A stretch of DNA of 64,000 nt from Deltaproteobacteria bacterium (GCA_016219115.1 JACRCH010000016.1:22294-86293), one strand, 5' to 3'. Shown: positions 7,014-63,799, numbered from the stretch's first letter. Notes: generated by a model from the letters alone, not told the origin. Made by a program: numbers and translations.

Positions 7014-8267
7014 TTGATGGAGCACGCAAGGTTTTTATTCCTTTTCATCTATATCGCCATAGCAGCCTTCGGCTACGCGCTTGAGTATCTCAATATCAGG
7101 CACTTGAGGAGGCGTCATTCGCCTCTGCCTCAGGAGCTTGAAAGGGAGATAGACCCGGACCTGCTCTCAAGGGCGGAGGCGTACACCATTGGGAAGACGA
7201 AGTTCGGGATAGTCTCATCGCTCTGCAATAACTCGGTCTTCCTCGTCTTTTTCTTCGGGGGCGGGCTTGAGTGGTATGACCGCTGGATAAAGTCTTTGGG
7301 CCATGAGTTCATGCTCTCCGGGGTCCTCTTCTTTATACTGCTCTCTTTCGCCGTCTCGGTCCTGAATATCCCCTTCAAGCTCTACCATGCCTTCGTCATA
7401 GAGAAGAGGTACGGGTTTAATACGATGACCCCGCTGGTCTGGGCAGCCGATCTTGTCAAGGGAGCGGCCGTCTCAACGGCGCTTATGGTCGTCGCCGTCT
7501 CGGCGGCCCTCTGGCTATACGCGGAGAGCCCTGAGTTCTGGTGGGTGTGGCTTTGGTTTTTCTACCTCGGCCTGAGCATTTTCCTGATGTATGTCTCGCC
7601 GTATGTAATAGAGCCGCTCTTCAACAAGTTCGAGCCCGTTGGGGACCCCGCCCTCGAGGAGTCGATAAGAGGGCTCATGGGAAAGGCCGGGATAAAGGTA
7701 TCAAGGGTATTCAAGATGGACGCATCCAGGAGGACCGCGCACACGAACGCGTACTTCACGGGCATAGGCAGGGTCAAGAGGATAGTGCTCTATGACACGC
7801 TCCTGGAGAAGCTTACAGGCAAAGAGATAGCGGCGGTACTCGCCCACGAGACAGGGCACTGGAAAAAAAGGCACCTCCTCAAGGGCATAATGCTTTCAGA
7901 GGCCGTGGCCCTCATTTCGCTCTACCTCGCGCATATCCTCCTTAAGGGAGGGTTCTTGAACGAGCTCTTCGGGATAAGCGGCGGGTCTTTCTTTACCGGG
8001 GTCTTTATACTGGGATTTTTAGGGTCGATAGCGAGCTTCCCCTTCGAGCCCATCTTCTCTTACATCTCAAGGAGGCACGAGCGTGAGGCAGACAGGTTCT
8101 CATACGGGCTTACGGGGGACTCAAGGGCGATGATAGGATCGCTCGTGAAGTTGTCAAAGGACAACCTCTCGAACCTCCATCCGCATCCGCTCTATGTGGC
8201 AATCCATTACTCGCACCCGCCCGTGGCCGAGAGGATAAGGGACCTGCGGAAGCTCGAAGGCGGTTAA
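7014..8267 (+). CDS. M48 family zinc metallopeptidase (Ste24/HtpX-like), multi-pass membrane
   Basis: HEXXH motif (LAHETGHWKKRH) with flanking TM helices. The C-terminal half matches the M48/CAAX-protease fold pattern. Confidence 0.8.
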   Translation: MMEHARFLFLFIYIAIAAFGYALEYLNIRHLRRRHSPLPQELEREIDPDLLSRAEAYTIGKTKFGIVSSLCNNSVFLVFFFGGGLEWYDRWIKSLGHEFMLSGVLFFILLSFAVSVLNIPFKLYHAFVIEKRYGFNTMTPLVWAADLVKGAAVSTALMVVAVSAALWLYAESPEFWWVWLWFFYLGLSIFLMYVSPYVIEPLFNKFEPVGDPALEESIRGLMGKAGIKVSRVFKMDASRRTAHTNAYFTGIGRVKRIVLYDTLLEKLTGKEIAAVLAHETGHWKKRHLLKGIMLSEAVALISLYLAHILLKGGFLNELFGISGGSFFTGVFILGFLGSIASFPFEPIFSYISRRHEREADRFSYGLTGDSRAMIGSLVKLSKDNLSNLHPHPLYVAIHYSHPPVAERIRDLRKLEGG

Positions 8268-8289
8268 AGACGGAGCGCGCCGGCCTTCT

Positions 8290-35144: not shown

Positions 35145-37508
35145 ATGAAGGCGCTCGACCGCAAGCTTCTGAGGGACATGTGGAAGATGAAGGGGCAGGT
35201 CCTCGCAATCGTCCTCGTCATCGCGGGCGGCGTGTCGGCCTTTGTGATGCTCATAAGCACGATGATGTCGCTGAACCTGACGAGGGACAAGTTTTACAGG
35301 GAGTACGCCTTCGCCGATGCCTTCGCGTCGCTCAAACGCGCCCCGGAAGGCCTCAAGTACCGCATAAAGGAGATACCCGGAGTAAAGGAAGTCGAGACCC
35401 GCGTAGTCGCCGGGGTGAAGCTCGACATCAAGGGCTTCACGGAGCCGGTGACGGCCAGGGTGGTCTCCGTGCCCGACGCCGGAACGCCGCTGCTGAACAG
35501 GCTTTATCTCAGGCGCGGTCGTCTGGTGGACCCGTGGAGGGACGACGAGGCCGTCGTGAGCGAGGCCTTCGCCGAGGCGCACGGGTTCAACCCCGGCGAC
35601 CGCTTCGGCGCGGTCATCAACGGCAGGCGGAAATCCCTCACCGTAGTCGGCATAGCCCTCTCGCCGGAGTTCGTCCTGCAGACAAGGCCCGGGGCGATAA
35701 GCCCGGATTACAAGCGGTACGCGATACTGTGGATGGGCAGGAACGCGCTCTCGAACGCCTACGACATGAAGGGGGCGTTCAACGACGTCGTGCTGGCGCT
35801 AGACGGGGACGCCGACTTGAACGATGTCCTGGCGAGGCTTGACAGCCTCCTTGACCGCTACGGCGGCCTGGGCGCGTACGGCCGCAAGGACCAGATGTCA
35901 AACCGCTTCCTGCATGAAGAGTTCCGGCAGCTGCAAAGGAGCGCCGAGATATTCCCGACTGTATTCATAGCGGTAGCAGCCTTTCTCCTTAATGTGGTCA
36001 TCGGCAGGACCGTACTCACGCAGAGAGAGCAGATAGCGGCCCTGAAGGCGTTCGGCTACGGCAACGCCGCAATCGGGGCGCATTATATCAAGCTCGTGTT
36101 TTTGATCGTGCTCGCCGGCGCCGCGGGGGGGATCATTGCCGGCGTCTGGTTCGGTAAAGGGCTCGGAAGGATATACATGGAGTTCTACCGTTTCCCTTAC
36201 CTCATCTATGAGCTCAAGCCGTCGGTAGCCGCCACGGCGGTCCTCATCACGGCGGCCTCGGCGCTCGCTGGCACGCTCCATTCGGTGAGAAAAGCGGCTA
36301 TGCTGCCGCCGGCGGAGGCGATGCGGCCGGAGCCGCCGGCGCGCTACAGGAAGACGATAATAGACCGCCTGGGCCTGGGCCGTTTTTTATCCCAGCCCGG
36401 CCTGATGATAATCCGCGACATCGAGCGGCGTCCGGTAAGGGCCCTCCTCTCAACGACCGGCATAGCCCTTTCGTGCGCCATAATGCTGGCGGGGACATTC
36501 TCGACTGATGCCGTCGATTTCATGATAAACGTGCAGTTCAAGCTCTCGCAGAAAGAGGACATGACCGTCGTTTTTACGGAGCCTGCGTCGAGGAAGGCGG
36601 TCTACGAACTGGCGGGCTTGAGGGGCGTGGAGTACGCCGAGGTCTTCAGGACCGTCCCGGTGCGCCTTAAGTTCGGGCGGCAAAGCTACCGCACGACCAT
36701 ACAGGGCACGGAGAAAGGCAACCGCCTGCACCCGCTCATCGACACGCGCCTCAAGCCGGTGGAGCTTGCATCCGAGGGGATCGTGCTTACCGATTATCTG
36801 GGTGATATTCTCGGCGTAAAGCCGGGTGACATGCTGACGGTAGAGGTCCTTGAGGGGAGCAGGCCCGTAAGGCAGGTCCCCGTGACTGGGCTCGCCGGGC
36901 AGTACCTCGGGGTGATGGGCTATATGGACATGACCGCCTTGAACCGCCTTATGAGAGAGGGCAACTCCGTCTCCGGGGCCTATCTGAGCGTGGACGCCCT
37001 CCATCAGGAAGAGCTGTACGGGAAGCTGATAGAGATGCCGCGGGTAGCGGGGACGGTAGTGAGGAAGGACGAGATAAGGAACTTTTATGAGACACAGGCC
37101 AAGGTGCTCCTCTTTTTCACCTTTATGACGAGTCTGCTTGCGGGGACCATCGCCTTCGGTGTAGTCTATAACAGCGCCAGGATCGCGCTCTCCGAGAGGA
37201 GCAGGGAGCTGGCGAGCCTCAGGGTCCTCGGTTACACCAGGGCGGAGATCTCGTACATACTTCTCGGGGAGCTGGCCGTCTTTACGCTTGCAGCCATACC
37301 GCTGGGGTTTGTCCTGGGGCGGGTCCTGTGCGCGTACATAGCCCGGTCTCTGAGTTCAGACCTTTTCAGGGTACCTGTCGTTGTGAACCCGGCCACCTAT
37401 TCGCTGGCGGCCACGGTCGTGGTCGTGTCGGCCTGCGTTTCGGGCCTGATAGTGCGCCATAGACTCGATCATCTGGACCTAGTCGAGGTCTTGAAGTCAA
37501 AGGAGTAA
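35145..37508 (+). CDS. ABC transporter permease with two FtsX-like 4-TM modules (MacB/YbbP-type)
   Basis: 787 aa. An N-terminal TM, a large periplasmic domain and a TM bundle are each duplicated. It is translationally coupled to the ATPase. Confidence 0.8.
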   Translation: MKALDRKLLRDMWKMKGQVLAIVLVIAGGVSAFVMLISTMMSLNLTRDKFYREYAFADAFASLKRAPEGLKYRIKEIPGVKEVETRVVAGVKLDIKGFTEPVTARVVSVPDAGTPLLNRLYLRRGRLVDPWRDDEAVVSEAFAEAHGFNPGDRFGAVINGRRKSLTVVGIALSPEFVLQTRPGAISPDYKRYAILWMGRNALSNAYDMKGAFNDVVLALDGDADLNDVLARLDSLLDRYGGLGAYGRKDQMSNRFLHEEFRQLQRSAEIFPTVFIAVAAFLLNVVIGRTVLTQREQIAALKAFGYGNAAIGAHYIKLVFLIVLAGAAGGIIAGVWFGKGLGRIYMEFYRFPYLIYELKPSVAATAVLITAASALAGTLHSVRKAAMLPPAEAMRPEPPARYRKTIIDRLGLGRFLSQPGLMIIRDIERRPVRALLSTTGIALSCAIMLAGTFSTDAVDFMINVQFKLSQKEDMTVVFTEPASRKAVYELAGLRGVEYAEVFRTVPVRLKFGRQSYRTTIQGTEKGNRLHPLIDTRLKPVELASEGIVLTDYLGDILGVKPGDMLTVEVLEGSRPVRQVPVTGLAGQYLGVMGYMDMTALNRLMREGNSVSGAYLSVDALHQEELYGKLIEMPRVAGTVVRKDEIRNFYETQAKVLLFFTFMTSLLAGTIAFGVVYNSARIALSERSRELASLRVLGYTRAEISYILLGELAVFTLAAIPLGFVLGRVLCAYIARSLSSDLFRVPVVVNPATYSLAATVVVVSACVSGLIVRHRLDHLDLVEVLKSKE

Positions 37509-37513
37509 ACAGG

Positions 37514-38707
37514 ATGCGCCTTCAGAGATGGATAATCATGTTTTTGATAGCGTCCGCCGTCGTGCTGGCGATAGTCTACGGGTTCATGCCCGGGGCCGTG
37601 CCAGCCGATGTCGCAAAAGTTGCGCGCGGGGTCCTGCGGGTCACGGTGGAAGAGGAGGGAAGGACGCGGGTGGTGGAGAGGTTCGTCGTGTCGGCTCCCG
37701 TGGCCGGGTACATGCGCAGGCTTAAACTCGACGTCGGCGATCCCGTAAAAAAGGGACAGACCGTGGCCGAGCTTGAGCCCCTGAGGTCTGCCGTGCTTGA
37801 CCCCAGGAGCCGCGCCGCCGCGGAGGCCGCGGTGCGTTCGGCCGCGGCGGCGTTGAAATCAGCTCAGGAGAACGCCCGCGCAAGCGTCGCCGACGCTGAG
37901 TTCGCGGTGGCAAGGCTTGAGAGGACGAGGAAGCTCTATGAGGGCGGTTTTGTCCCGAAAAACACGATGGACCAGGTGGAGAGCGAGGCGAAACGCTTGG
38001 AGGCCGCGCGCCTGGCCTACGAGGCTTCCGAAAAGACAGCGCTCCATGAGCTTGAAAAGGCCCGTACCGCCCTCGGGTACTCCGCAGCCGAGGGTTCAAA
38101 GGACCATGGCCGGGTGGTGGCCGTGCGCGCGCCCGTCAAGGGAAGGGTCCTCAAGGTACATCACGAGAGCGCCGGGGTGGTAAACCCCGGAGAACCCCTT
38201 GTCGACATAGGGGACCCCGGGAGACTCGAGGTCAAGGTGGAGGTCTTGAGCGCGGACGCGGTCAAGATATCTCCGGGCACCACGGTGCTCTTCGAACGCT
38301 GGGGAGACGAGGGGGCGCTGACCGGCAGGGTGAGGGTTGTGGAGCCGGCCGGGTTCACGAAGATATCGAGTCTGGGGGTGGAGGAGCAGAGGGTGAATGT
38401 CATAGCCGACATCACTTCGCAGGCTGAGAGCCTGCAGAGGATGGGTGACGGATTCAAGGCGGACGCGCGCTTTGTCATCTGGGAGGGTAAAGGCGTGCTG
38501 CAGGTACCGGCAAGCTCGCTTTTCCGCAGACGCGATGCCTGGGCCGTATTCGTGGTCGGAAACGGCCGGGCGCGCGAACAAAAGGTGGAAGTCGGACACT
38601 CCAACGGGCTTGCCGCCGAGATACTTTCAGGGGTCGCCGAGGGTGAGACTGTCGTCACCCGCCCCGACGACTCGATACGGGACGGCACCCGCGTTACCCC
38701 GAGGTGA
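37514..38707 (+). CDS. efflux transporter periplasmic adaptor subunit (HlyD/MFP family)
   Basis: An N-terminal TM anchor, then biotinyl-lipoyl-like motifs (APVAGYMRRLKLDVGDPVKKGQTVAEL), a long coiled-coil region, a beta-barrel and an MP domain. Confidence 0.8.
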   Translation: MRLQRWIIMFLIASAVVLAIVYGFMPGAVPADVAKVARGVLRVTVEEEGRTRVVERFVVSAPVAGYMRRLKLDVGDPVKKGQTVAELEPLRSAVLDPRSRAAAEAAVRSAAAALKSAQENARASVADAEFAVARLERTRKLYEGGFVPKNTMDQVESEAKRLEAARLAYEASEKTALHELEKARTALGYSAAEGSKDHGRVVAVRAPVKGRVLKVHHESAGVVNPGEPLVDIGDPGRLEVKVEVLSADAVKISPGTTVLFERWGDEGALTGRVRVVEPAGFTKISSLGVEEQRVNVIADITSQAESLQRMGDGFKADARFVIWEGKGVLQVPASSLFRRRDAWAVFVVGNGRAREQKVEVGHSNGLAAEILSGVAEGETVVTRPDDSIRDGTRVTPR

Positions 38708-51657: not shown

Positions 51658-52368
51658 TCATGAAACCGTGGATTGTCTAAGTATCTCCTCGACTTCCTCT
51701 GGGGAGAGGCTCAATTTGATTTCCTTGTTGTGCTTGTCGATATGCCCCACCTTTTTTCCGCCGAGCACCACATCCATACGCCATGTGCCGTGCTCGAAGT
51801 CTATATGAGGTTCAACTTCCATCTTCTGGACGATTTTGTTTTTTTCTTCCTCGGTCAGGTCGTAAATAGTGCCTTCTATTGCGGTAGGCACGTCAAGATA
51901 TCCCTTCGGGTCTTTACGGTATGCGTGGGCTTTGCCCTCCTTGCTCAAAATATCCGCTCTGCTCGCCTTCCATGGGCAGTCTATAACTTCAAAATGAAGG
52001 TGGCTTGGGTCCTTACCGGTTTTGCTGTAGGCATACCCGCTATGGCCGACCGTGCCGATAGTCTTTCCTTTTTTGACTATGTCTCCTACCCCCGCGCCTA
52101 TTGTGTTGAGATGCGCATACAGTGTATATATGTGGCGTTCGTTGTCCTTTGCCTTTGGGGCATGGTCAATGATCACGTGGTCCCCATAGCCGGGGACGTT
52201 GGCTTCCGAAGCTATAACGTCACCGCTTTCGCTCGCCTCAACAGGCGTGCCCTTTGGAGCGCCGTAGTCTATACCTTTGTGTTTTCTTCCCCCGGGCCTT
52301 GCCTCGTCGAATACTGAAGTGATATTGAAGCTGCCATGTACAGGCTCTTTAAATGTCAGTTCACCCAT
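51658..52368 (-). CDS. M23 family metallopeptidase (LytM-like) without signal peptide
   Basis: HKGIDYGAPKGTPVEASESGDVI and HSGYAYSKTGKDPSHLHFEV match the M23 HxxxD / HxH active-site motifs. It sits in a low-GC segment. Confidence 0.75.
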   Translation of the reverse strand: MGELTFKEPVHGSFNITSVFDEARPGGRKHKGIDYGAPKGTPVEASESGDVIASEANVPGYGDHVIIDHAPKAKDNERHIYTLYAHLNTIGAGVGDIVKKGKTIGTVGHSGYAYSKTGKDPSHLHFEVIDCPWKASRADILSKEGKAHAYRKDPKGYLDVPTAIEGTIYDLTEEEKNKIVQKMEVEPHIDFEHGTWRMDVVLGGKKVGHIDKHNKEIKLSLSPEEVEEILRQSTVS

Positions 52369-52425
52369 CGTCTTCCCCCTTCAAAAAACAGGAACGTACT
52401 CGGTTTAAATTGGCTTAAGACCTGG

Positions 52426-52959
52426 CTACTTGCAGAGATCAAGCAACCGTTTGGCGCGGACCATATTCCTGCGTAGTGCTTGCTCGCCCTCTTCAGTAAG
52501 CTCCCACGGCCTTGGATTCGAAACCTCGCTTTCGGCTTCTTTCAAGAATTCTTTCAACGCATAAAAAGCCTTCCTTTTTTCACCGCCAAGGAGATAAGCC
52601 CTTCCTAAAGGCAGAAGAACCTCATAACTTGAAACCTCATACCTTGTAACTTTGTATGCTTTTTTATAAAATCCGGCTGCATCAGCAAACCTCTTCTTTT
52701 TTTCTTCTTCAAGCCCTTTCAGCCAAAGTCCATAGAAATCAATATCTCCCTGAGCCCATGGTGCATCTTTATTCCTTCCAACTAACTCCAGGTTTTCTTT
52801 GACAAGTAAGGATTCTTCATAGATGGCCCTGAGAATATCTTGTCCGTCTTCAGGAGGCACATAGGACTTAGCGCATCCCAGAGGTCCAAAAAACAAGAAG
52901 AGTGACCACAAGGATATACAAAGAGAAATTAACGCAGGATTTTTGCACGCCTTATTCAT
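52426..52959 (-). CDS. hypothetical lipoprotein
   Basis: A signal peptide with a lipobox (LFLFFGPLGCAKS). Helical and TPR-like, with no catalytic motifs. It lies immediately downstream of the M23 peptidase gene on the same strand. Confidence 0.4.
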   Translation of the reverse strand: MNKACKNPALISLCISLWSLFLFFGPLGCAKSYVPPEDGQDILRAIYEESLLVKENLELVGRNKDAPWAQGDIDFYGLWLKGLEEEKKKRFADAAGFYKKAYKVTRYEVSSYEVLLPLGRAYLLGGEKRKAFYALKEFLKEAESEVSNPRPWELTEEGEQALRRNMVRAKRLLDLCK

Positions 52960-53066
52960 CTGTTTTACCTTTTCCCGCCGAATACGGAGCTGACATAGCT
53001 GCCTGTCAGCCGTATAAACGTCAACTCTCCCATTTGTCTTCCTCTTTTTGTGCAGTTTGGTATAAA

Positions 53067-53780
53067 TCAGTCTATTACATTTGGCCCACATTTTACCGTG
53101 CCGCTGGAGAGGTCTTCATGAAATTTCCACTCCCCTTTTTCCAACTTCAAGATCACAGGATATGTCATATCGGACGTTTTGGGACAAAGCTTCCTGTCTG
53201 AACGGGTGTACTTGTCAAGCAGTACGGTCTGGCTGTCCTTCCACTCGATAAATCGGTACAATGCGTATTCATTTACTGGAGGGTCAAAGGGCCTGTACGA
53301 GAGCTCCGGCACAATTCCATCGTCCTCAAAACGGTCTACAAAAACCCCGTTTTCGTTATAGCCGGAATCGTTTGCCGAGACTGAGACAAAACGTTTTCTG
53401 TCGGGTGAAAACTCCGGGAAGGCTGGCACCATATACTTCTCTCCGCTTTTATCGGATATCATCGAATACTCAAAACCTTCATAGTAGCCAATGAAAACAA
53501 GATAAAACCCGATATCCTTGTAGTAATCAACGAACTGATACAACGCACATGTTTCCCCTCTTGTGCAATCACTTGAATCAGAAAGGGTAACAAAAGAGCC
53601 GGACTTCAAGCGAAGGCGCAGCACATTGCCGTCTCTTTTGACATATGGCGCAAACTTCTTTAACTGTTCTTGTTCCTTAGCGCTTATGTCCTCGATAAGC
53701 TCTGCTTCTGACGGTAGCGCATGAACAAACGTCAGCAAAAAAAGTATAGTTGCAGAAAATAAAAAAATGCTCTTTTTCAT
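53067..53780 (-). CDS. hypothetical exported protein
   Basis: A signal peptide (MKKSIFLFSATILFLLTFVHALPSEA). 237 aa, low GC. Confidence 0.45.
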   Translation of the reverse strand: MKKSIFLFSATILFLLTFVHALPSEAELIEDISAKEQEQLKKFAPYVKRDGNVLRLRLKSGSFVTLSDSSDCTRGETCALYQFVDYYKDIGFYLVFIGYYEGFEYSMISDKSGEKYMVPAFPEFSPDRKRFVSVSANDSGYNENGVFVDRFEDDGIVPELSYRPFDPPVNEYALYRFIEWKDSQTVLLDKYTRSDRKLCPKTSDMTYPVILKLEKGEWKFHEDLSSGTVKCGPNVID

Positions 53781-54134: not shown

Positions 54135-54166
54135 AAGGGGGTTGCGACACTTACCGCAACCCCCTA
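54135..54166 (-). terminator. rho-independent terminator directly 3' of the tRNA fragment
   Basis: The minus strand reads GGGGGTTGCG-GTAAGTGT-CGCAACCCCC followed by TTTATTTTAAGG. Confidence 0.45.
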
Positions 54167-54178
54167 CAAATCTGGCTC

Positions 54179-54226
54179 CCAGGGAGGGATTCGAACCCCC
54201 GACCCGGTGGTTAACAGTCTGAAACT
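54179..54226 (-). tRNA. tRNA 3'-half fragment (T-arm + acceptor 3' strand + CCA); no 5' half present
   Basis: The minus strand reads ...CACCGGGTCGGGGGTTCGAATCCCTCCCTGGGAGCCA, with a GGTTCGAATCC T-loop and a CCA end. No complementary 5' acceptor strand is found upstream. Confidence 0.4.
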
Positions 54227-55023
54227 TTAAAAATTTGTAACTGAGCCTTCTGCCTGCACTTTTAAGAAAAAAACGAATTTTCAAACATTTGCGCCATTAT
54301 GTCCTTTGCGGCATTTTCCGTCCCTTAAGACCGATTCGGACGCTTTCGGCTACGTTTTGGTTACGTTGACAACTATTCGGAGTTAAGTAAGGGCCGTCCA
54401 TTCCTGCTGCAAAATACGCTGTCTCATCACTTATTGCTCCACTCCCCCCAACTGATATCGACAGAGCGTACTCCTTGCCGTCCATTATGTAACCACTCAC
54501 TTTAATTTATCGACTCGTCAGGGGTGCTGCAAGTCAGGGTTATACATTCTGATGGGTTAGAAATTCATTCGAGAGGGGTCATGGGTTTGCTTTGCCAAAT
54601 GGCAGCGTGACGTCAGTAAGCGTCCCGGTGACCTTTAATGCTCTGAATTTTGGCGGGTACTGGATTGAATACGTTCAAAATGATGAAACCAAAATGGGGA
54701 AGAAAAGTTCGATATATGTTCCTAATTATCGCATGGCACTGCTACGAGGCAACCCCTGGAAAATCAATGGACTCAAACCTGAACCAGCTTCTGCTGGTTC
54801 TTAGTTAATGGGAAACCAATGTTTTCAAGATAACCTGTCCTAAAGTACAGGTTCAAAAAACAGGAGTTTATATTATAAAATGACGATACTACCTCTAATA
54901 AATTTCGAAAAATAGTGTATATTTGCAGTTTGCATGATATGTCTGTTTATAAAGTGATAGAGTTTCTCTTACACAGAAAATTTCACCGGCGACATTGAAA
55001 AATAAACCGTATCTATGGTGTGA

Positions 55024-56928
55024 TTGATGGCACAGAAAGCTTCATGGCGTGAAATTAATATTGTATTAGCAATACTAGTTATAATCACCGTCTTCACCGC
55101 GCTCCCTGCCAATGCCGACAGCACCTTAAACCCTGAGGTACTAAAAGAGTCCGCTACCCTGCCATCAGTCAAAAGTCCCATCGGGGCTGCCCACCGCAAG
55201 GCCCTCAAGGCATATCAGACTACAAAAGACCCGAAGCATTCTATCAAGATACTGGAAGACGCAGGGGTAGCCGGACTTGCCGGCAAGGACCCTGAAACAG
55301 CCTCTCTTACAAAGGGTCAATATGCCGCCGTGCTCAACGACTACGCCTATTTTCTTTATCTTGCAGGGCAGAAGACAAGGGCTCTTCCCATACTTAACAG
55401 GGTCATAGAGGTCGACCCCGAAAGGGTGGCCGCATATCTAAACCGGGGCGATATCTATGGGGAGGTATACGGCAGGACAAAAGACATCCGCGACAAGGAA
55501 CTGTATGTAGCCGACTACAGGGCCTACAACGAGCGGATGATAAGGGATAAGAAGTCCTTCCTCGTCCCAGAGCGTGTAGAGCGGGGGCTTTATGCCCTTG
55601 AGATAAAACAACCGCCCGTGGAAAAGGAAAAGAGGCGGGAGTTGGAGGAGAAGCTCTACGAGGCCGCCAAGATGAACAACATCGAAGAGGTTGTAAGGCT
55701 TCTGAAGGAAGGAGCAGACCCTAACGCAGGAGCCTATGTTGCGCCCCTGCGTTACTCTGACAACGATGTGCTTCTCTACCAGAGCAAAAGCTACGAAACA
55801 CCGCTGGACTTTGCGGCCTTACAGAACAATATCGAGATGGCGAAGTACCTTATCTATAACGGCGCCACGGTGCATATGAGGTCTCTACAACGCAACACCC
55901 CCCTGCACTATGCCGCGTGTGGGGGAGACCTTGAAATGGTTAAGTACCTCTTGGGGAAAGGCGCCATATACGACTACCCGAACAACAACTCCTTTATGCC
56001 TGTCGGTTGGGCCATCGGCTGCAAGGACGGAGAGCATGAGGAGGAAGTCTTCGACTTCCTCCTGAGCATAAATAACGGAAGGTATATAAACGGGGCGACC
56101 TTAGACGAGATAATAAAGAATGCCGGGGGTCTTAAGGACAGGGAGAGGGGCCTGCGGGTAGTGCGCGACATTTTCACAAGGTTCAGGAAGCGCATTTCAA
56201 CAAAGGCCCTTGGTGAGAGTTATGTAAAAGCCGTGATGACTGACAACAGGAAGCTTGTCGATTTTTACAGAAAAAATAAAGTCAAGATAGATACTGACGA
56301 GTACATAGGGGCCCTTATAAGGGGGAAGAAGTTCGATGAGGCGAAGAAGGTTATTGAGTCGGCTAAGAAGCTCGGGAGAGAGACTTTTTCGAGTATAAGC
56401 TTAATACCTGTCTACAAAACAGATTGGAAGTGCGAGCGTGGGCAGGAGAGGTATGAAGGTAATGAGGTGGAGGAGTTATTGCTGCCTGCCATAAAGGCAT
56501 ACAATCTGAGTAAGCCTACGGAGTCTAACAACCATGACCTTATCTTTTCCCGGTTTTTAGACCAGCTCAGCTCTTATTCTTTCAAATATCCACTATGTTT
56601 TAATAAGGCGAGGACAATTAAAGTTGTCCGGTTGATGCTGGAAAATGGACTTAATCCAGCATTCCTCAATTCGGGATTCCATTATATTGTCGCACTCAAT
56701 GATCTTGAACTGGCAAAAGAGGTGCTTGAAAAAATAAGTGTTGATGAAAAAATTTGTTATTATTTATTTGCTAATGCAAGGTCGATGGAGATGGTCAGGT
56801 TTCTGGAGTCTCATGGATTCAGCCTTTCCAATGAAGAGTACAAGAGACTTGTCGAACATATGGAGAAAAAAACTTTCCCAGATACAGACCGGAGCGTTAT
56901 CGTGCATTATAAAACAAAAATCAAATAG
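55024..56928 (+). CDS. exported ankyrin-repeat / TPR-repeat protein
   Basis: A signal peptide (ILVIITVFTALPANA), TPR-like helices, then at least 3 ankyrin repeats (TPLDFAALQNNIEMAKYLIYNGATVH..RNTPLHYAACGGDLEMVKYLLGKGA). Confidence 0.75.
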   Translation: MMAQKASWREINIVLAILVIITVFTALPANADSTLNPEVLKESATLPSVKSPIGAAHRKALKAYQTTKDPKHSIKILEDAGVAGLAGKDPETASLTKGQYAAVLNDYAYFLYLAGQKTRALPILNRVIEVDPERVAAYLNRGDIYGEVYGRTKDIRDKELYVADYRAYNERMIRDKKSFLVPERVERGLYALEIKQPPVEKEKRRELEEKLYEAAKMNNIEEVVRLLKEGADPNAGAYVAPLRYSDNDVLLYQSKSYETPLDFAALQNNIEMAKYLIYNGATVHMRSLQRNTPLHYAACGGDLEMVKYLLGKGAIYDYPNNNSFMPVGWAIGCKDGEHEEEVFDFLLSINNGRYINGATLDEIIKNAGGLKDRERGLRVVRDIFTRFRKRISTKALGESYVKAVMTDNRKLVDFYRKNKVKIDTDEYIGALIRGKKFDEAKKVIESAKKLGRETFSSISLIPVYKTDWKCERGQERYEGNEVEELLLPAIKAYNLSKPTESNNHDLIFSRFLDQLSSYSFKYPLCFNKARTIKVVRLMLENGLNPAFLNSGFHYIVALNDLELAKEVLEKISVDEKICYYLFANARSMEMVRFLESHGFSLSNEEYKRLVEHMEKKTFPDTDRSVIVHYKTKIK

Positions 56929-56939
56929 GGAGGTAGAAC

Positions 56940-59900
56940 ATGGCGGTATTTAATACAACACAGCAAGAGACGGACTTCAAGAATCTGCTTCGGGAGGTTT
57001 ACTTACGGAATGAAGCACAACCTAATGAGTGGTATGTATTTACAAGTAATGCGGGTACGGGCACTAGCGGCTGGAGCTTCGGCCCGGCGCAGTGGGATGT
57101 GAGAAATAATCCTTCGGTCGCTATACCTATTTTAGATAAGATGAAAGATAGTAATGGAGTAAAATTATTTAGTGATACTGATATTAGTAAATTAAGAGGC
57201 TCTGAAAACATTACTGCTTCTGACCTGGAAAGATATAACGCTATACTTAATGCTAATCAGGTGTTGATTAATGCAGAATTTGAGCAGCATCTTAATAACG
57301 ATGTTGCTCTCATTGAAAACCTTGTTTCAGAACTTAGCGCATCAGGCAATCAACAGACGGCCGATTATATAACAAGCAACAAACTGGCACAAGTGATGTT
57401 GGTGGATTACAATAATCAATTCAAGATCAGTGGGGTTGACAGCAACGGAACAGTTAACGGTGCCAATGACGGCAAGATGATGAAATTTTTAAAAGGTCTT
57501 CAGGTTGATGATTACGGCGGTGGAAAGATGGATACGGGCCCAAGCTTTGATGTGACGGACATTATGAAGTTCTTAACAGGGACTAAATGGGCTTACAATT
57601 ATGAAAACGATGGTCAGGGTCCAAGAGATATATATAGAAGGCTTACAAACATCAGGGATACAGTCGGATCATTTTTAACAGATGCGGAACGTCAACTGAT
57701 AAATACTTTTTTAGGTATTCAAAGGCTCGGTTTGCTGGGTGATGCTATTCATGATGCTTGGCTGAACTATTTTAATACGGCAAAGACGGTAATAGTCACT
57801 CCAAGTTCGCATTGTCCACTAATTTTTGATTTGGATGGAGACGGCGTTGAGACAACGAATGTCAAGGCTGGCTATTATTTTGACCATGATGGTGATGGTT
57901 TCGCCCAACAGACCGGGTGGGCCGGACAGGATGATGGCGTACTGTTTAGAGACCTTAATGGAAACGGACTTATTGATAACGGAGCAGAATTGTTCGGGAA
58001 TGAAACTATCCTAACAAGCGGTGCAAAGGCGGCCAATGGATTTTTGGCGCTGGCTGAACTGGACAACAATGCTGACGGCAAGATAGACTCGAATGATACC
58101 GCATGGGGTGAGCTGAAAATATGGCAAGATAACAACAACGATGGATATACCACGGTTGATGAGATGCTTACGCTTGATGCATTAGGCATTCAGTCGATAA
58201 ATACCGGCTACACTACATCAGCCATGGTCGATACCCAGGGCAATGAACATCGTCAAACAGGCAGTTTTACTAAGACGGACGGAACAACAGGAACGGTTTC
58301 TGATGTGTGGTTCCGGACTGATAACGCATTTGCAATGGCAAAAGAATGGCTTGATGTGCCTCAGGATATTGCCGCCCTGCCTGATTTGAAGGGTGGCGGA
58401 ACTGTCTATGATTTGCACCAAGCGATGGTACGCGATACGAGCGGAGCATTGAAAACACTGGTTCAGAGTTTTATTGCCGAGGCTGATCCCATTATACGCG
58501 GCAATTTGATGGAGCAGATACTTATAAAGTGGACCGGAAGCGATGATATCGACCCTAATAGCAGGGGGCAATGGATTGATGCACGAAATTTGAGTGCCCT
58601 AGAGAAATTATTCAACAACCAATTTGTAGATATTAACGGCAATACAGACCCCAATACTATGAATGCGATCCTATTAAGGCAAGCGTTTCAGGGAGTGGTT
58701 GAAAAAAATTACGCACAGTTAATTGCCCAGACTCATATTCAAAACCTTGTCAATATGATCACATATTCCTGGGATGCTACTGCATCGGACCTTAAGGGTG
58801 ACTTGAGTGCTGTACAAACAGAAATACAGACCCAAATTAATACAAACTATGATACGGGCAAGCAGTTCCTTTCCGAATTCTCTCGAATTCTGAAAGGACT
58901 TAACGCAGAAGGAATAACAGACTTCACAAATTTCAGAGATTATTTTGCGTCTCAGAGTGAAGATTTGGCGTGGACAATCGATGCCGCAGGAAAATATTTA
59001 ATAAGCGGAACAGCCGGTAACGATGCTTTCAATGCAGCAGATATTAATAGCGCTTTGACCGGAGGTGACGGGAATGACACTTTATCTGGGCTAGATGGAA
59101 ACGATACGATATACGGGAATGCCGGTGTAGACTATTTAAACGGAGGCAACGGGGATGATTTGATTGCTGGTGGGGCCGGCAATGACTTCTTATACGGAGA
59201 GACCGGCAATGATACCCTTTACGGGGGCGATGGGAACGACAATATAGATGGCGGCGATGGCTCTGATTTTCTTTATGGTGGAGCTGGAGACGATTATATC
59301 GCTGGCGGAGCCGGCAGCGATACCTATCTATTCAACCTTGGAGACGGTCAAGACACCATAAGCGAGGGTGACTGGCCGGGGATTGATATAGACGTGCTCA
59401 GGTTCGGGAGTGGCATAACGAGTGCGGATCTTCTTATCGGAAGAGATATGAACAATCTTTACAACCTTACGGTCGGTATAAGCGGTACCTCTGACAAGAT
59501 CACGGTGGAGAACTGGTACGGTGACAATGCTTACAAGCTTGAGCGTTTCGACTTTGCCAACGGTACAAGCCTTACGGGAGCCGAGGTAGAGGCGATGGCA
59601 GTTATAAGGGGGACTGCCGGTGATGACTGGATTTATGGTAGTCCCGAGAATGAGAAATTCGAGGGTGGTTTAGGCAACGACTATATCTCAGGCGATGGGG
59701 GAAATGATACATACCTCTTCCAGCGTGGAGGCGGGCAGGATACTATAACTGATTATGACACGATAGTAGGCAATACGGATGTTGTCCAGTTCGACGTTAA
59801 TCCCCTTGATTTGATCTTTTCCCAATCAGGCAATAACCTCAGCCTCTCGATAAGTGGCTCTTCCGACAGTCTTAACGTGCAGAACTGGTATTCAGGCATA

Positions 59901-60089
59901 GATAACCAAACCGAGATATTTAAGGCTGCGGATGGAAGTCAGCTTCTGAGTACTCAAGTCGACCAGCTTGTCCAGGCCATGGCGTCGTTCTGCTCCAGCA
60001 ACGGTATAAGCTGGGAGCAGGCGATACAAACCAACCCACAAGATGTCCAGCAGATACTCGCTCAGAATTGGAGTCAACCTCAACCATAA
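56940..60089 (+). CDS. large RTX-family calcium-binding repeat protein (type I secretion substrate)
   Basis: Tandem GGxGxDxUx nonapeptides (GGDGNDTLSGLDGNDTIYGNAGVDYLNGGNGDDLIAGGAGNDFLYGETGNDTLYGGDGND...). Two HCBP-related modules (ITVENWYGDN...ERFDFANGTSL; LNVQNWYSG...IFKAADGSQL). An N-terminal acidic DxDGDG domain. No N-terminal signal peptide, consistent with a C-terminal secretion signal. Confidence 0.85.
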   Translation: MAVFNTTQQETDFKNLLREVYLRNEAQPNEWYVFTSNAGTGTSGWSFGPAQWDVRNNPSVAIPILDKMKDSNGVKLFSDTDISKLRGSENITASDLERYNAILNANQVLINAEFEQHLNNDVALIENLVSELSASGNQQTADYITSNKLAQVMLVDYNNQFKISGVDSNGTVNGANDGKMMKFLKGLQVDDYGGGKMDTGPSFDVTDIMKFLTGTKWAYNYENDGQGPRDIYRRLTNIRDTVGSFLTDAERQLINTFLGIQRLGLLGDAIHDAWLNYFNTAKTVIVTPSSHCPLIFDLDGDGVETTNVKAGYYFDHDGDGFAQQTGWAGQDDGVLFRDLNGNGLIDNGAELFGNETILTSGAKAANGFLALAELDNNADGKIDSNDTAWGELKIWQDNNNDGYTTVDEMLTLDALGIQSINTGYTTSAMVDTQGNEHRQTGSFTKTDGTTGTVSDVWFRTDNAFAMAKEWLDVPQDIAALPDLKGGGTVYDLHQAMVRDTSGALKTLVQSFIAEADPIIRGNLMEQILIKWTGSDDIDPNSRGQWIDARNLSALEKLFNNQFVDINGNTDPNTMNAILLRQAFQGVVEKNYAQLIAQTHIQNLVNMITYSWDATASDLKGDLSAVQTEIQTQINTNYDTGKQFLSEFSRILKGLNAEGITDFTNFRDYFASQSEDLAWTIDAAGKYLISGTAGNDAFNAADINSALTGGDGNDTLSGLDGNDTIYGNAGVDYLNGGNGDDLIAGGAGNDFLYGETGNDTLYGGDGNDNIDGGDGSDFLYGGAGDDYIAGGAGSDTYLFNLGDGQDTISEGDWPGIDIDVLRFGSGITSADLLIGRDMNNLYNLTVGISGTSDKITVENWYGDNAYKLERFDFANGTSLTGAEVEAMAVIRGTAGDDWIYGSPENEKFEGGLGNDYISGDGGNDTYLFQRGGGQDTITDYDTIVGNTDVVQFDVNPLDLIFSQSGNNLSLSISGSSDSLNVQNWYSGIDNQTEIFKAADGSQLLSTQVDQLVQAMASFCSSNGISWEQAIQTNPQDVQQILAQNWSQPQP

Positions 60090-60235
60090 CGAGTTTTTGT
60101 TATATGTTTTTGTGTAGCTTCCAGTTAATTTCACTCATCCCTATCAATACACATGGGGAGAGGATTGAAACACCACATTGAAGAATAGTATCGTTATTAA
60201 AGGTCGTATTTTATGGAAAGCGCGCAAGAGGTTAT

Positions 60236-62392
60236 GTGGACACGGAACAGCAAAAGGATGCCGGCGGTGACCATAAGAAGATAGATAGCGGTTTACACTG
60301 CCTTGTAACGATAGCGAAGTTTCATGGTGTTGCCGCAGATCCTGCCCAGATAAAACACACCTTTGCCATCGGATCGGATGGCATGAGTACCATTGATATA
60401 TTAAGAGCCTCCAGAGAATTAGGATTCAAGTCAAAAGCAGCAATAGTAAGATACGAAAGGCTACAAAGACTCCCGCTTCCAGCGATTGTAGAGGCTGAAG
60501 GCGGTGGGTATTTTATTCTTGCCAAAGTTGAAGGCGAGCAATTACTTGCCTTGAATCCTTTGGAAGGCAAGCCTAAGATTTTAAAAAAAGAAGAATTCTT
60601 AAGAGCATGGAAAGGCGGGATAATTCTTTTATCATATAGAGGTTCAGGATTTTTGTATTCAGAGGAAATCTTTGGGCTCAAATGGTTCATTCCCGCGATA
60701 TGGAAATACAGAAGAGCACTCAGAGACGTGTTGATTGCCTCTTTTGTACTTCAGATTTTTGCCCTTATCACTCCCATATTCACCCAAGTCATAATCGATA
60801 AAGTCCTTGTCCATAACGGTGTAACTACACTTGACGTCCTTGCCATTGGGTTAATAACGATTGCCCTCTTTGAGGCAATTCTGAATATTTTGAGGACATT
60901 CGTTTTCACCCATACCACAAGCCAGATAGATGTCACGCTTGGTGCGAAGCTGTTCAAACATCTAATGGCGCTACCTCTCAGATATTTTGAGGTTCGGAGA
61001 GTGGGAGATACCGTTGCCAGGGTACGGGAGCTTGAGAACATAAGGCAATTCCTTACGGGTGCGCCGCTTACGTCCATTCTGGATGTAATGTTCATAGCCG
61101 TGTTTGTGATAGTAATGTTTTTCTACAGTGCAACTTTATCACTGGTTGCCTTGGCGGCGCTCCCTTTTTTTGCTCTGCTATCAGCGATTGTCACTCCCAT
61201 GCTACGACACAGACTTGACGAGAGGTTCAACAGAGGCGCAGACGCACAGTCGTATCTGGTTGAAGCAGTTAACGGAATACAAACGGTAAAATCGTTTGCA
61301 CTTGAGCCTGAGGCTCAGAAAAAATGGGAAAGTCTTCTTGCAAATTACATCAAAGCAAGCTTTAAGACATACCAGTTGTCTGGCATTGCAGGAGGCATCG
61401 GGCAACTGATACAAAAATTATCTTATCTTGTTATTCTATGGGTAGGAGCGAAGCTAGTAATGGATGGGCAATTGACCGTCGGGCAGTTGATCGCCTTTCA
61501 GATGTTGTCGGGAAGAGTCAGCGACCCAGTACTAAGGCTTGTTCAAATGTGGCAGGAGTTCCAGCAAGCTGGTCTTTCCATAAGAAGGCTTGGCGACATA
61601 TTTAATACTAAGCCGGAACCGGCGATTGCCGCTACTAAAATGAGACTTCCATCCATCAAGGGAAGTGTCAGGCTTGAAGGGGTTAGGTTCAGGTATCGTA
61701 TCGACGGCTCTGAGGTGCTTAGGAACATTTCGCTTCATGTTGAACCTGGGACAACCATAGGGATTGTCGGAAGAAGCGGATCGGGGAAGAGCACTATCGC
61801 CAAGCTCATACAGAGACTCTACCTTCCAGAATCAGGCAAAATACTTATTGATGGTGTAGACATATCACTTGCGGACCCTGCTTGGCTTAGACGTCAGATA
61901 GGTGTTGTGCTGCAGGAAAACTATCTTTTTAATAGCAGCGTAAGAGATAATATTGCGATTCATTATCCTTCCGCGCAGATGGAAGAGATCATCAGGGCCG
62001 CACAGCTTGCCGGTGCCCATGAGTTTATCCTTGAACTTCCGGAAGGATACGACACCACAGTAGGAGAAAAAGGTACTGCTCTTTCGGGTGGGCAGAGACA
62101 GAGGGTTGCCATTGCGAGGGCGCTTCTTATGAATCCACGAATTCTTATATTCGACGAAGCAACCTCGGCGCTGGATTACGAGTCTGAAAGTATAATTCAG
62201 AGTAATCTTAAAAGAATATGCCATGGTAGGACCGTAATAATAATAGCACACAGGCTTTCCACTTTAAGGAACGCGGATAAAACAATAATGATAGACAGAG
62301 GTGAACTCATAGAATCTGGAAGTCATGAAGAATTAATTTCCAGGAAAGGACTATATTGCCATCTCTATAGCCAGCAGGAAAGGCATGTGTAA
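60236..62392 (+). CDS. type I secretion system ABC transporter (HlyB family) with N-terminal C39-like domain lacking the catalytic Cys
   Basis: A C39-like domain (DSGLHCLVTIAKFHG, Cys to Ser at the catalytic position), six TM helices, Walker A (GRSGSGKST), signature ([14 protein letters not shown]) and Walker B (ILIFDEATS). Confidence 0.9.
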   Translation: MDTEQQKDAGGDHKKIDSGLHCLVTIAKFHGVAADPAQIKHTFAIGSDGMSTIDILRASRELGFKSKAAIVRYERLQRLPLPAIVEAEGGGYFILAKVEGEQLLALNPLEGKPKILKKEEFLRAWKGGIILLSYRGSGFLYSEEIFGLKWFIPAIWKYRRALRDVLIASFVLQIFALITPIFTQVIIDKVLVHNGVTTLDVLAIGLITIALFEAILNILRTFVFTHTTSQIDVTLGAKLFKHLMALPLRYFEVRRVGDTVARVRELENIRQFLTGAPLTSILDVMFIAVFVIVMFFYSATLSLVALAALPFFALLSAIVTPMLRHRLDERFNRGADAQSYLVEAVNGIQTVKSFALEPEAQKKWESLLANYIKASFKTYQLSGIAGGIGQLIQKLSYLVILWVGAKLVMDGQLTVGQLIAFQMLSGRVSDPVLRLVQMWQEFQQAGLSIRRLGDIFNTKPEPAIAATKMRLPSIKGSVRLEGVRFRYRIDGSEVLRNISLHVEPGTTIGIVGRSGSGKSTIAKLIQRLYLPESGKILIDGVDISLADPAWLRRQIGVVLQENYLFNSSVRDNIAIHYPSAQMEEIIRAAQLAGAHEFILELPEGYDTTVGEKGTALSGGQRQRVAIARALLMNPRILIFDEATSALDYESESIIQSNLKRICHGRTVIIIAHRLSTLRNADKTIMIDRGELIESGSHEELISRKGLYCHLYSQQERHV

Positions 62393-62470
62393 ATGGTTGC
62401 ATTTGAATATTCTGAATTCTATTATTCGATTTTTTCGCCCTCTTGATTACGGCTTATTAGAGGTGTTGCT

Positions 62471-63799
62471 ATGATAGAATGGCTTAAAAAGGCATTAAGA
62501 AAGGATAAGCTTGAATATGAGTTCTTGCCTCCAGTCCTTGAAATAATCGAGACCCCGCCATCTCCATTTAAAAGCCTATTGATCTGGGTTGTTTTTTTAA
62601 TGGTTCTCATAGCCTTTGCTTGGGCCTATTTCGGTACGGTTGACGAAGTGGCTACGGCCAGAGGAAGAGTAATACCTGATGGAAGATTAAAGGTAGTACA
62701 GCCTATAGAAGCGGGCGTAATCAGGGGCATACATGTTCGGGAGGGACAGAGTGTTAAGGAAGGAGATGTGCTAATTGAACTTGACCCAACGATAAAGCTC
62801 GCAGATGTTGAAAGTAACGAAAAATCACTTTCAATTCATCAGGTGGACAGAGAAAGGCTTTTGGCAGAACTCCGAAGCGGCAATATGATTATCAAGGGAA
62901 GAGGAGAATTATTTGAATTACAGAAAAAATTAAAGGATGCAAGGGAGTCTGAATACAATGCAAGGGAAGAAGCAATTAAGTCTGTCATTGCTCAAAAGGA
63001 CAATGAGATTCGGGCTTCAGAGGCTATATTGGTGAAGCTGGAAAAAACATATTTGATTTTAAAAGAGCAGGAGAGTTCCCTTAGGAGCCTTTTCGAGCAG
63101 GGTTATCTTACCAAAAAGGATCTACTCGACAAACAGTTGCAGTTGTATGCATCTGAGCAGGAAGCTGAGGCGCAGAAAAAGACGGTACTGCAGGTGAGGG
63201 AAGGGTTGAATGAAAAAAAGATGAATCTCGATGCGCTCAAAAAAGAACGGGAGAAAGTGATACTCAACGATATTGTGGATAGTGAAAAGACAATTGCTCC
63301 GATAGAGGGAGAGGTAAGGAAGGCACGGAGAAAATATGAACTTGAAAGACTGAGTTCTCCGGTAGATGGTACTGTCCACGGTATTTCCGCGCATACAATT
63401 GGAGGAGTTGTAACGCCGGCACAGCCCGTTGTCACCGTTGTCCCGGTAGGAACACCTCTTATAGTTGAGGCAACAGCGCTTAACAGGGACATCGGATTTT
63501 TAGAAGTCGGACAGGAAGTAAATATCAAATTCGATACCTTTCCATTTCAGAAGTACGGCACTATTCAAGGAAAGGTTGTATGGATAAGCCCTGATTCCTT
63601 TGATGATGAAAAGCTTGGCCCTATTTACAAGATGAAGGTTGAGATGGAAAAGCGGAGTATGAATATTGACAATAGGGTTGCGTCAATCACGCCAGGGATG
63701 ACCGTATCCGTTGATGTTAAGACTGGTAAAAGGCGCGTAATAGAATTTTTCCTCTCACCTATAGTAAAATACACAAAAGAGAGTCTCATACTTAGATAA
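62471..63799 (+). CDS. type I secretion periplasmic adaptor (HlyD family)
   Basis: An N-terminal TM, the HlyD motif (TARGRVIPDGRLKVVQPIEAGVIRGIHVREGQSVKEGDVLIELDP), a long coiled-coil and a C-terminal beta domain. Confidence 0.9.
   Translation: MIEWLKKALRKDKLEYEFLPPVLEIIETPPSPFKSLLIWVVFLMVLIAFAWAYFGTVDEVATARGRVIPDGRLKVVQPIEAGVIRGIHVREGQSVKEGDVLIELDPTIKLADVESNEKSLSIHQVDRERLLAELRSGNMIIKGRGELFELQKKLKDARESEYNAREEAIKSVIAQKDNEIRASEAILVKLEKTYLILKEQESSLRSLFEQGYLTKKDLLDKQLQLYASEQEAEAQKKTVLQVREGLNEKKMNLDALKKEREKVILNDIVDSEKTIAPIEGEVRKARRKYELERLSSPVDGTVHGISAHTIGGVVTPAQPVVTVVPVGTPLIVEATALNRDIGFLEVGQEVNIKFDTFPFQKYGTIQGKVVWISPDSFDDEKLGPIYKMKVEMEKRSMNIDNRVASITPGMTVSVDVKTGKRRVIEFFLSPIVKYTKESLILR

Follow-up and report, generated by a model that had tools for sequence, protein, structure and literature searches.

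A 64,000-nucleotide (nt) stretch of DNA from a Deltaproteobacteria bacterium (GCA_016219115.1, JACRCH010000016.1:22294-86293; the window in what follows) carries, at positions 55,024 to 63,799, a type I secretion locus that we read, with moderate confidence, as a toxin module of the FrpC class, in which a lysozyme-like head would act against the peptidoglycan of rival bacteria and an ankyrin protein would serve as its immunity partner. Four open reading frames (ORFs) in the same direction on the + strand, all intact and tightly spaced, fill the locus. They encode, in order, an exported TPR/ankyrin protein, an RTX protein, an HlyB-family ABC transporter, and an HlyD-family periplasmic adaptor (Table 1). 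The ORF of the RTX protein starts 11 nt downstream of the ankyrin ORF, and its product is made up of an N-terminal head, an FrpC-type self-processing module (SPM), a linker, and RTX repeats. It does not represent a novel type of system and falls in the FrpC class. Three features distinguish it there: an SPM without the defining aspartate, a putative new lysozyme-like head family, and an ankyrin-solenoid partner.

The putative toxin head and its family

The head of the RTX protein (residues 1-292) had no match in Pfam, in NCBIfam, in PHROGs, or in a profile search of the PDB, and nothing was found when it was used as the query in a word-index homology search. When 1.84 billion representatives were searched exhaustively with HMMER, 86 relatives were recovered, and in all but one of them the match lies at or near the N-terminus of the protein. 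The invariant positions of this family are E25, S43, F47, G48, Q51, D53, D156, and N159, and its consensus reads NE...SGYSFGxxQWD...DYxNQF. Using the family alignment, we obtained an AlphaFold2 model of the head with a predicted local distance difference test score (pLDDT) of 89.9. The only coherent fold matches of this model are enzymes of the lysozyme superfamily: GH46 chitosanases in the PDB (probability up to 0.94, template-modelling score 0.44-0.54) and, among the viral models of BFVD, a phage endolysin, a VgrG-like lysozyme, an 'effector/immunity/peptidoglycan' protein, and GH46 (probability up to 0.97). We therefore consider, with moderate confidence, that the head adopts a GH46/endolysin-like fold.

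In the model, the invariant E25 comes directly after the first long helix (residues 7-24), and the invariant D53 comes after strand 45-47, in the small β-sheet that follows. E25 is likely to be the catalytic acid and D53 a second catalytic residue, their equivalence to the catalytic residues of GH46 being presumed. As modelled, the head would share two traits with T4-type lysozymes, GH46 chitosanases, and the lysozymes of phage virions, namely a first long helix with an invariant glutamate at its end and, next, a small β-sheet that bears an invariant aspartate. It is set apart from these enzymes by its sequence, in which no similarity to a curated family could be detected.

The proteins in which the head occurs point to the cell wall of other bacteria. 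Domain partners were counted in 63 full-length members of the family, and these include PG_binding_1 (13 members), PG_binding_3 (6), XVIPCD (9), and RTX repeats (10). XVIPCD is the secretion signal of the bacteria-killing type IV effectors of Xanthomonads. In Luteibacter sp. 22Crub2.1, the gene of an effector composed of the head, PG_binding_1, and XVIPCD lies 49 nt downstream of one that belongs to the LprI lysozyme-inhibitor family (PF07007, E = 1.2e-8, above the cutoff), a pair that offers a culturable system for head activity and immunity. The head also rides type I carriers that have no SPM, as seen at another locus (L013, 6001-17920) where a 2213-residue protein with the head, a BapA_N-like region, and RTX repeats is followed by HlyB, HlyD, and OEP/TolC genes. 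We propose the head as a candidate for a new glycoside-hydrolase family common to type I and type IV antibacterial effectors.

Membership of the head in the Smlt3024 family, described in 2019 as an 'N-terminal domain of RTX proteins', was considered and rejected (hhalign probability 0.1%). The Xanthomonad X-Tfe/X-Tfi pairs, of which Smlt3024/Smlt3025 is one, resemble the present system in having an N-terminal effector domain common to RTX and XVIPCD proteins and, by analogy, an upstream immunity gene and a periplasmic site of action. They differ in that no homology links Smlt3024 to the present head and in that secretion here is of type I rather than contact-dependent and of type IV.

Since GH46 chitosanases are the top PDB fold matches, the head could instead be a chitosanase-like polysaccharide hydrolase for nutrition or matrix remodelling, with an ankyrin gene that encodes a chaperone or is unrelated. 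This is unlikely in our judgment: the family is fused to peptidoglycan-binding domains and to XVIPCD, a lysozyme-inhibitor gene adjoins the head effector in Luteibacter, the sister heads carried by the SPM are peptidoglycan peptidases (M23 and NlpC/P60; see below), and the conserved exported partners encoded upstream form the pattern of immunity genes.

The self-processing module and the RTX carrier

Residues 293-464 of the RTX protein match the module of Neisseria meningitidis FrpC (PDB 6SJW/6SJX) with an E-value of 4.5e-45, and the identical gene in Logan carries the precomputed Pfam family PF26745:SPM. The original prediction had seen here an unusual N-terminal acidic DxDGDG domain. The string that it quoted, CPLIFDLDGDGVETTN, lies at the internal residues 292-307, and the domain turns out to be the known SPM of FrpC; what is odd about it is that the residue before Pro293 is a cysteine, Cys292, in place of the scissile aspartate.

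The alignment of the PDB match was read against the residues named in the literature on FrpC (PMC7078468). The equivalents of W451, D456, D462-E474, G477, G491, W519, D521-E532, and D579 are conserved, and with them the tryptophan pair (W451/W519), the EF-hand-like calcium sites, and the 'narrow port' glycines. The equivalent of FrpC D478, an asparagine here, is the sole departure among the fold-critical residues checked, and in FrpC this substitution slows cleavage only moderately (PMC7078468).

The SPM is defined by the calcium-induced cleavage of an Asp-Pro bond, in which the aspartate side chain attacks its own carbonyl to give an anhydride that can go on to link to lysine (PMC7078468), and the D414A substitution in FrpC abolishes both cleavage and linkage (PMC7846742). 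Because Cys292 stands where the FrpC mechanism needs an aspartate, the 'clip-and-link' reaction through an aspartic anhydride cannot occur, and this canonical chemistry is, as read from the sequence, impossible in the RTX protein.

To place Cys292 within the family, we took a census of the residue that precedes the proline in 83 SPM members, drawn from SPM homologues and head-family members with upstream sequence, a sample skewed to short and partly truncated metagenomic proteins. Serine was found in 53, threonine in 14, cysteine in 4, aspartate in 11, and glutamate in 1, with no other residue at this position. Serine, threonine, or cysteine thus precedes the proline in 71 of the 83 members, and aspartate is the minority state. 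The nearest relatives of the module (59-68% identity) have serine or threonine, and none has aspartate. That the position is limited to nucleophile and carboxylate side chains speaks for a role in the chemistry or in some precise feature of the structure. A large and distant branch of metagenomic SPM proteins (P0041-P0105) has the motif [ST]-P-[IV]-[LIV]-[IV]-D-x-x-G-[ND]-G-F, with aspartate before the proline in no member; Cys-rich segments usually precede the motif, and some of these proteins have metalloprotease-like HExxH heads.

We tentatively suggest, as a possibility to which we give clearly less credence than to the toxin module itself, that the Ser/Thr/Cys-Pro module is the ancestral and majority form of the SPM and undergoes a calcium-triggered autoprocessing that does not pass through an aspartic anhydride. 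It would free cell-wall-hydrolase heads from RTX carriers secreted by the type I route and would be the joint of an unrecognised N-terminal polymorphic toxin system, from which FrpC/FrpD would be derived. Candidate chemistries are the hydrolysis of a strained X-Pro amide and an N-to-O/S acyl shift.

The absence of the anhydride-forming aspartate bears also on a second explanation of the locus, tethering in the style of FrpC/FrpD, in which the ankyrin protein would capture the head at the envelope and the SPM would link it covalently for adhesion or biofilm formation. The operon logic is that of frpDC, an exported partner followed by a head-SPM-RTX protein, and the fold residues of the SPM are conserved, as tethering would have it. 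However, with Cys292 in place of the residue whose replacement (D414A) leaves FrpC unable either to cleave or to link, with an ankyrin protein that has no lipobox and hence no outer-membrane anchor, and with a head that looks enzymatic in its invariant glutamate and aspartate, we give tethering a low probability.

The linker that follows the SPM is conserved in the proteins of four related loci (L003, L004, L009, and L011). In Pfam, the RTX protein matches HemolysinCabind (PF00353, 112 bits, six stretches) and HCBP_related (72 bits, two stretches). It also matches the RTX blocks of CyaA, and its residues 944-1044 align to the C-terminal segment of CyaA (i-Evalue 1e-6). We take it for an RTX exoprotein with an uncleaved C-terminal secretion region, whose secretion is predicted. 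The RTX repeat protein of 1049 residues with two HCBP-related modules is thus present as first described; its description as an adhesin-like substrate finds no support, since no adhesin domain was found in it with Pfam and its N-terminal head is modelled as a lysozyme-superfamily domain tied to peptidoglycan-binding domains and XVIPCD signals.

The exported partner and the exchange of heads

The protein encoded upstream of the head is, as had been claimed for the start of the locus, a Sec-exported protein with TPR and ankyrin repeats. Its signal peptide was recognised by eye (hydrophobic core INIVLAILVIITVFTAL, cleavage motif A-N-A|D), and it has no lipobox. Pfam gave matches to Ank_2 (82 bits) and Ank (67 bits) and to a single borderline TPR unit (TPR_14, 24.0 bits, just over the cutoff of 23.5). 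The AlphaFold2 model is an extended all-alpha solenoid that matches long ankyrin arrays, which suggests a protein-binding scaffold.

Five full-length homologues were found (42-55% identity), and the gene neighbourhoods of four of them were looked up (L004/L005, L009, L010, and L007). In L004/L005 (GCA_040960625), the ankyrin gene is followed by genes for a head-SPM-RTX protein of 2484 residues, HlyB, and HlyD. In L009, 12 nt separate it from the gene of a head-SPM-RTX protein of at least 1977 residues, and in L010 it precedes a head fragment of 56 residues. A distant clade of heads (L003 and L011) has a different, conserved family of upstream partners, and a signal peptide is present in every upstream partner protein. 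The 324-residue partner of L011 did not match Smlt3025 or FrpD by sequence; its only matches were to designed beta-propeller ('Cake') repeats, with a whole-sequence E-value of about 1e-3 and no significant single stretch.

Partners of this kind have precedents, in that ankyrin immunity proteins (Imm-ank) are known from polymorphic toxin systems (PMC3482391) and FrpD, a product of the frpDC operon, has an affinity of 0.2 nM for the head of FrpC (PMC5233953). Because its homologues lie directly upstream of the same head elsewhere, the ankyrin/TPR protein is probably the periplasmic immunity protein of the head, which is the most economical reading, and not a host effector.

The original prediction had favoured a role of the ankyrin repeats in interaction with a host or eukaryote. 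In its full form, this would make the RTX protein an adhesin or cytotoxin against a eukaryotic host and the ankyrin/TPR protein a host-interaction effector. The ankyrin repeats do give weak matches to models of Legionella Dot/Icm Ank effectors (32.7 bits against a cutoff of 600), FrpC and ApxIVA come from animal pathogens, and deletion of the SPM of ApxIVA attenuates virulence (PMC7078468). However, the ankyrin protein carries a signal peptide of the Sec route and neither a type I nor a type IV secretion signal, its gene is co-inherited with the head gene, the RTX protein contains no adhesin domains, and the head family is found together with peptidoglycan-binding domains, next to an LprI gene, and joined to a type IV signal for secretion between bacteria. 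The source, moreover, is the metagenome-assembled genome (MAG) of an environmental deltaproteobacterium with NiFe hydrogenase genes. We regard a host-directed function as very unlikely.

Related loci further indicate that heads are exchanged. Upstream of the ankyrin gene in L004 lies a displaced cassette (7835-9571; GCA_040960625.1, JBFOMW010000330.1) that encodes a 193-residue signal-peptide protein and a 376-residue NlpC/P60-SPM protein. The SPM of the latter is 88% identical over 185 residues to that of the main gene, after which the sequence breaks off. L010 and L011 likewise contain partner genes lined up with truncated heads, and in L010 the head fragment is followed by a homologue of the 193-residue protein too. 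In other metagenomic proteins, the heads carried by the SPM are M23, NlpC/P60, and PF22322 domains. A tblastn search of the window found no further SPM or head cassettes. To judge from these sequences, the SPM is a conserved joint at which cell-wall-hydrolase heads are swapped along with the partner genes upstream of them.

The arrangement would be that of a mirrored, N-terminal polymorphic toxin, with the toxin head at the N-terminus and the partner gene upstream, a layout that follows from the need of the type I secretion signal to stay C-terminal. As in the polymorphic toxins of contact-dependent inhibition (CDI), Rhs, and MafB systems, toxin domains that vary would be borne by a carrier that is conserved, with the genes of the cognate immunity proteins next to them. 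Displaced 'orphan' cassettes of toxin and immunity genes and a recombination joint that is itself conserved would likewise be shared, and ankyrin repeats are a known immunity class there. The present arrangement differs in that the toxin is N-terminal, and not C-terminal as classically defined, in that the immunity gene lies upstream, and in that the joint is the SPM and not a VENN or PxxxxDPxGL-like motif. We found no paper that links the SPM to polymorphic toxins, and a 2012 survey of polymorphic toxins treats type I secretion only in its background section (PMC3482391).

Taken together, these features suggest the following course of events. As would be expected from family membership, the RTX protein would stay unfolded in the low-calcium cytosol, be recognised by the non-catalytic C39-like domain of HlyB, and leave the cell, with its C-terminus leading, through HlyB-HlyD and an outer-membrane factor whose gene lies elsewhere, and extracellular calcium would then fold the RTX β-roll and the SPM. 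Judging from its fold, domain partners, and gene neighbours, the head would cleave the glycan strands of the peptidoglycan of competitor bacteria, and the Sec-exported TPR/ankyrin solenoid would bind and neutralise the head in the periplasm. More speculatively, the SPM might still free or activate the head by another route, such as the hydrolysis of a strained X-Pro amide or an ester or thioester intermediate.

Several points weigh against a toxin module of this kind. The E-values of the fold search with the head are weak (0.05-0.6), and its top PDB matches are chitosanases, not muramidases. Given the effect of D414A in FrpC, a Cys-Pro module may not cleave at all. The more distant heads have non-ankyrin partners, so that the link between ankyrin protein and head comes down to four loci, and the ankyrin homologue of L007 is an orphan among defence-type genes with no toxin adjoining. 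We know of no route by which a type I-secreted protein of 1049 residues, or its head, would cross the outer membrane of a Gram-negative target; the existence of a periplasmic partner suggests that the secreted head does reach the target periplasm. Finally, head activity, immunity role, and cleavage are all inferred.

Secretion machinery, genomic setting, and the FrpC class

The transporter and the adaptor scored well above the curated NCBIfam cutoffs (HlyB, TIGR01846, 977.2 bits against 725.55; HlyD, TIGR01843, 376.9 bits against 208.65). The N-terminal region of HlyB matches Peptidase_C39 in Pfam (68 bits), and its top PDB alignment is to the C39-like domain of Escherichia coli HlyB (E = 9e-18). 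Since Ser18 aligns at the position of the catalytic cysteine of PCAT1 and a GGGYF stretch has no histidine at the position of the catalytic one, the domain lacks both residues and is therefore a non-proteolytic substrate-docking domain. These results bear out the complete inner-membrane translocator of the original prediction, and the HMMER check that it proposed for HemolysinCabind, HCBP_related, Ank, and Peptidase_C39 gave matches to all of these families.

Table 1. Features of the locus and its left flank (window coordinates), and the related gene pair in Luteibacter
Feature	Position (nt)	Strand	Remarks
Intrinsic terminator	54136-54165	-	13-bp stem with 8 GC pairs, T-run; directly after CCA of the tRNA fragment
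tRNA-Asn(GTT), 3' part (presumed identity)	54173-54218	-	Anticodon loop CTGTTAA, T-arm GGGGGTTCGAATCCCTC, acceptor 3' strand, CCA
TPR/ankyrin signal-peptide solenoid protein	55024-56928	+	634 aa with TTG start; deposited version 633 aa, with ATG start at 55027
RTX protein ORF	56940-60089	+	1049 aa
Putative toxin head, lysozyme-superfamily domain (modelled)	56940-57815	+	RTX protein residues 1-292
FrpC-type SPM	57816-58331	+	Residues 293-464; PDB 6SJW/6SJX
Conserved linker after the SPM	58332-59006	+	Residues 465 to ~689; no Pfam match
RTX beta-roll blocks, two HCBP_related modules, C-terminal secretion region	59007-60089	+	Residues ~690-1049
HlyB-family ABC transporter	60236-62392	+	718 aa; TIGR01846
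C39-like N-terminal domain of HlyB, non-catalytic	60275-60646	+	Residues 14-137; best PDB match 3ZUA
HlyD-family periplasmic adaptor	62471-63799	+	442 aa; TIGR01843, Pfam HlyD_3
Luteibacter LprI gene and head-PG_binding_1-XVIPCD effector	L012 3254-5419		FUYT01000009.1

The outer-membrane component had been placed outside the window, and indeed no TolC-like factor was found in its 64 kb. Exact look-ups returned a single 10-kb Logan contig (L001), from an independent read set; it is identical to the locus, with 0 mismatches over 9659 nt, and contains no ORF in the 650 nt past hlyD. By analogy with E. coli, the TolC-like factor may be unlinked to the locus. A scan of genome contigs with HlyD returned a single distant locus, L002. 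In the public record, the RTX protein has the accession MBI5587048.1 and the name 'hypothetical protein [Deltaproteobacteria bacterium]', and its gene lies on an 88-kb MAG contig.

The HlyA-HlyB-HlyD system of E. coli and the CyaA system of Bordetella pertussis are similar in their degenerate C39-like domain on the ABC transporter, HlyD adaptor, RTX β-roll, and CyaA-like C-terminal segment, and the outer-membrane factor would be unlinked as is tolC in E. coli. In contrast to these systems, the present locus has no acyltransferase gene (HlyC/CyaC) and no pore-forming hydrophobic domain, and the domain to be delivered is a putative glycosidase head.

From about 51 kb to the end of the window, the GC content falls from 0.55-0.60 to 0.42-0.47. 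The GC content at third codon positions (GC3) is 0.41-0.57 for the four genes of the locus against 0.753 ± 0.049 for the core (28 ORFs), and the Jensen-Shannon divergence of their codon usage from the core is 0.065-0.152 against a leave-one-out core mean of 0.039. The original prediction had staked its claim of foreign origin in part on such a difference in composition and would have withdrawn it had GC and codon usage not differed significantly from the rest of the genome and had homologous loci been syntenic in all close relatives. GC and codon usage do deviate, and the horizontal acquisition of the locus is therefore supported.

The adjacent tRNA scar that had been noted was also located: next to the locus lies the 3' half of what we take to be tRNA-Asn, an identification made by eye and from an alignment with the tRNA-Asn of E. 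coli. No tRNA was called in the window by ARAGORN or by Rfam. The terminator directly after the fragment is probably the original terminator of the tRNA. The fragment looks like an att-type scar that marks the left boundary of the island bearing the locus and, since it is oriented on the minus strand, the inserted DNA lies to its right, where the secretion locus sits. Given this orientation, an intact tRNA-Asn and any integrase would be expected beyond 64 kb, and the DNA past 64.45 kb is also where a TolC gene would be looked for; no integrase was seen among the ORFs examined at 51.6-64 kb. A 12-nt inverted match (GTCTGAAACTTT / AAAGTTTCAGAC) joins 54217-54228, exactly at the junction of the tRNA fragment, to a site about 400 nt past the end of the window (L001 10053-10064), before the start of a new gene past hlyD. 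As an island signal, it was judged too short to interpret (E = 2.2 for the whole search) and may be due to chance.

The missing outer-membrane factor, integrase, and intact tRNA in the window, together with the fragmented state of the related loci L003, L010, and L011, might suggest a decaying island remnant, with a Cys-Pro module that is no more than a relic and a system that has ceased to function. Against this stand the four intact and tightly spaced ORFs, the identical sequence in an independent read set, the finding that serine, threonine, or cysteine before the proline is the conserved majority of the family and not a one-off mutation, and the retention of the checked fold-critical SPM residues other than D478 (asparagine here). 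We consider a remnant the least probable of the rival explanations. Host adhesin, tethering, chitosanase, and remnant each conflict with several observations, and each has a low probability.

To the left of the tRNA scar lies a low-GC operon of three genes (51658-53780, minus strand) for a 237-residue signal-peptide protein, a 221-residue protein with a possible lipobox, and a 236-residue M23 peptidase without a signal peptide, whose PHROG matches are endolysin-like. It may be a separate cell-wall effector with its partners. The M23 gene (51658-52368) was considered as a displaced head of the SPM type and rejected, as it has no similarity to any SPM protein, their M23 heads included. Between 39997 and 50707, the window encodes the small and large subunits of a NiFe hydrogenase, a cytochrome b, the HycI protease, and three radical-SAM proteins, one of them fused to HupF/HypC. 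NiFe hydrogenase maturation genes are also encoded in the rest of the window, and an FtsX-type permease and a second HlyD-family adaptor lie at 35145-38707. This gene content fits an anaerobic deltaproteobacterium. One of the 28 long core ORFs (window 1-50800) has a GC3 of 0.571 against 0.71-0.85 in the others and may be a second small foreign insert.

Among known systems, the locus comes closest to frpDC and to ApxIVA of Actinobacillus pleuropneumoniae, which present a head, an SPM, RTX repeats, and a C-terminal type I signal in the same order. The SPM is homologous, with its calcium sites and tryptophan pair conserved, and, as in frpDC, the gene of an exported partner lies immediately upstream, the binding being putative here. 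The differences are that the scissile aspartate is a cysteine, that the head is unrelated and lysozyme-like, that the partner is a soluble ankyrin/TPR solenoid and not of the FrpD lipoprotein fold, that hlyB and hlyD are linked to the locus, and that the organism is an environmental deltaproteobacterium.

To our knowledge, decades of study of FrpC-class proteins have led to no agreed function. NeissLock protein-ligation technology rests on the Asp-Pro bond of the SPM. This bond defines the module in the literature, yet it is the minority state in the family, and Ser/Thr/Cys-Pro modules either do not cleave or do so by a chemistry so far undescribed. The 2019 paper on Smlt3024 put forward the proposal that FrpC might be an antibacterial type I effector and FrpD its immunity protein (PMC6759196). 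The present locus and its relatives lend concrete support to this idea, because the SPM carries peptidoglycan-hydrolase heads (M23, NlpC/P60, and, as modelled, lysozyme-like), each with an exported partner encoded upstream. If the tentative reading of the Ser/Thr/Cys-Pro module is true, the long-standing question of the purpose of FrpC would be settled.

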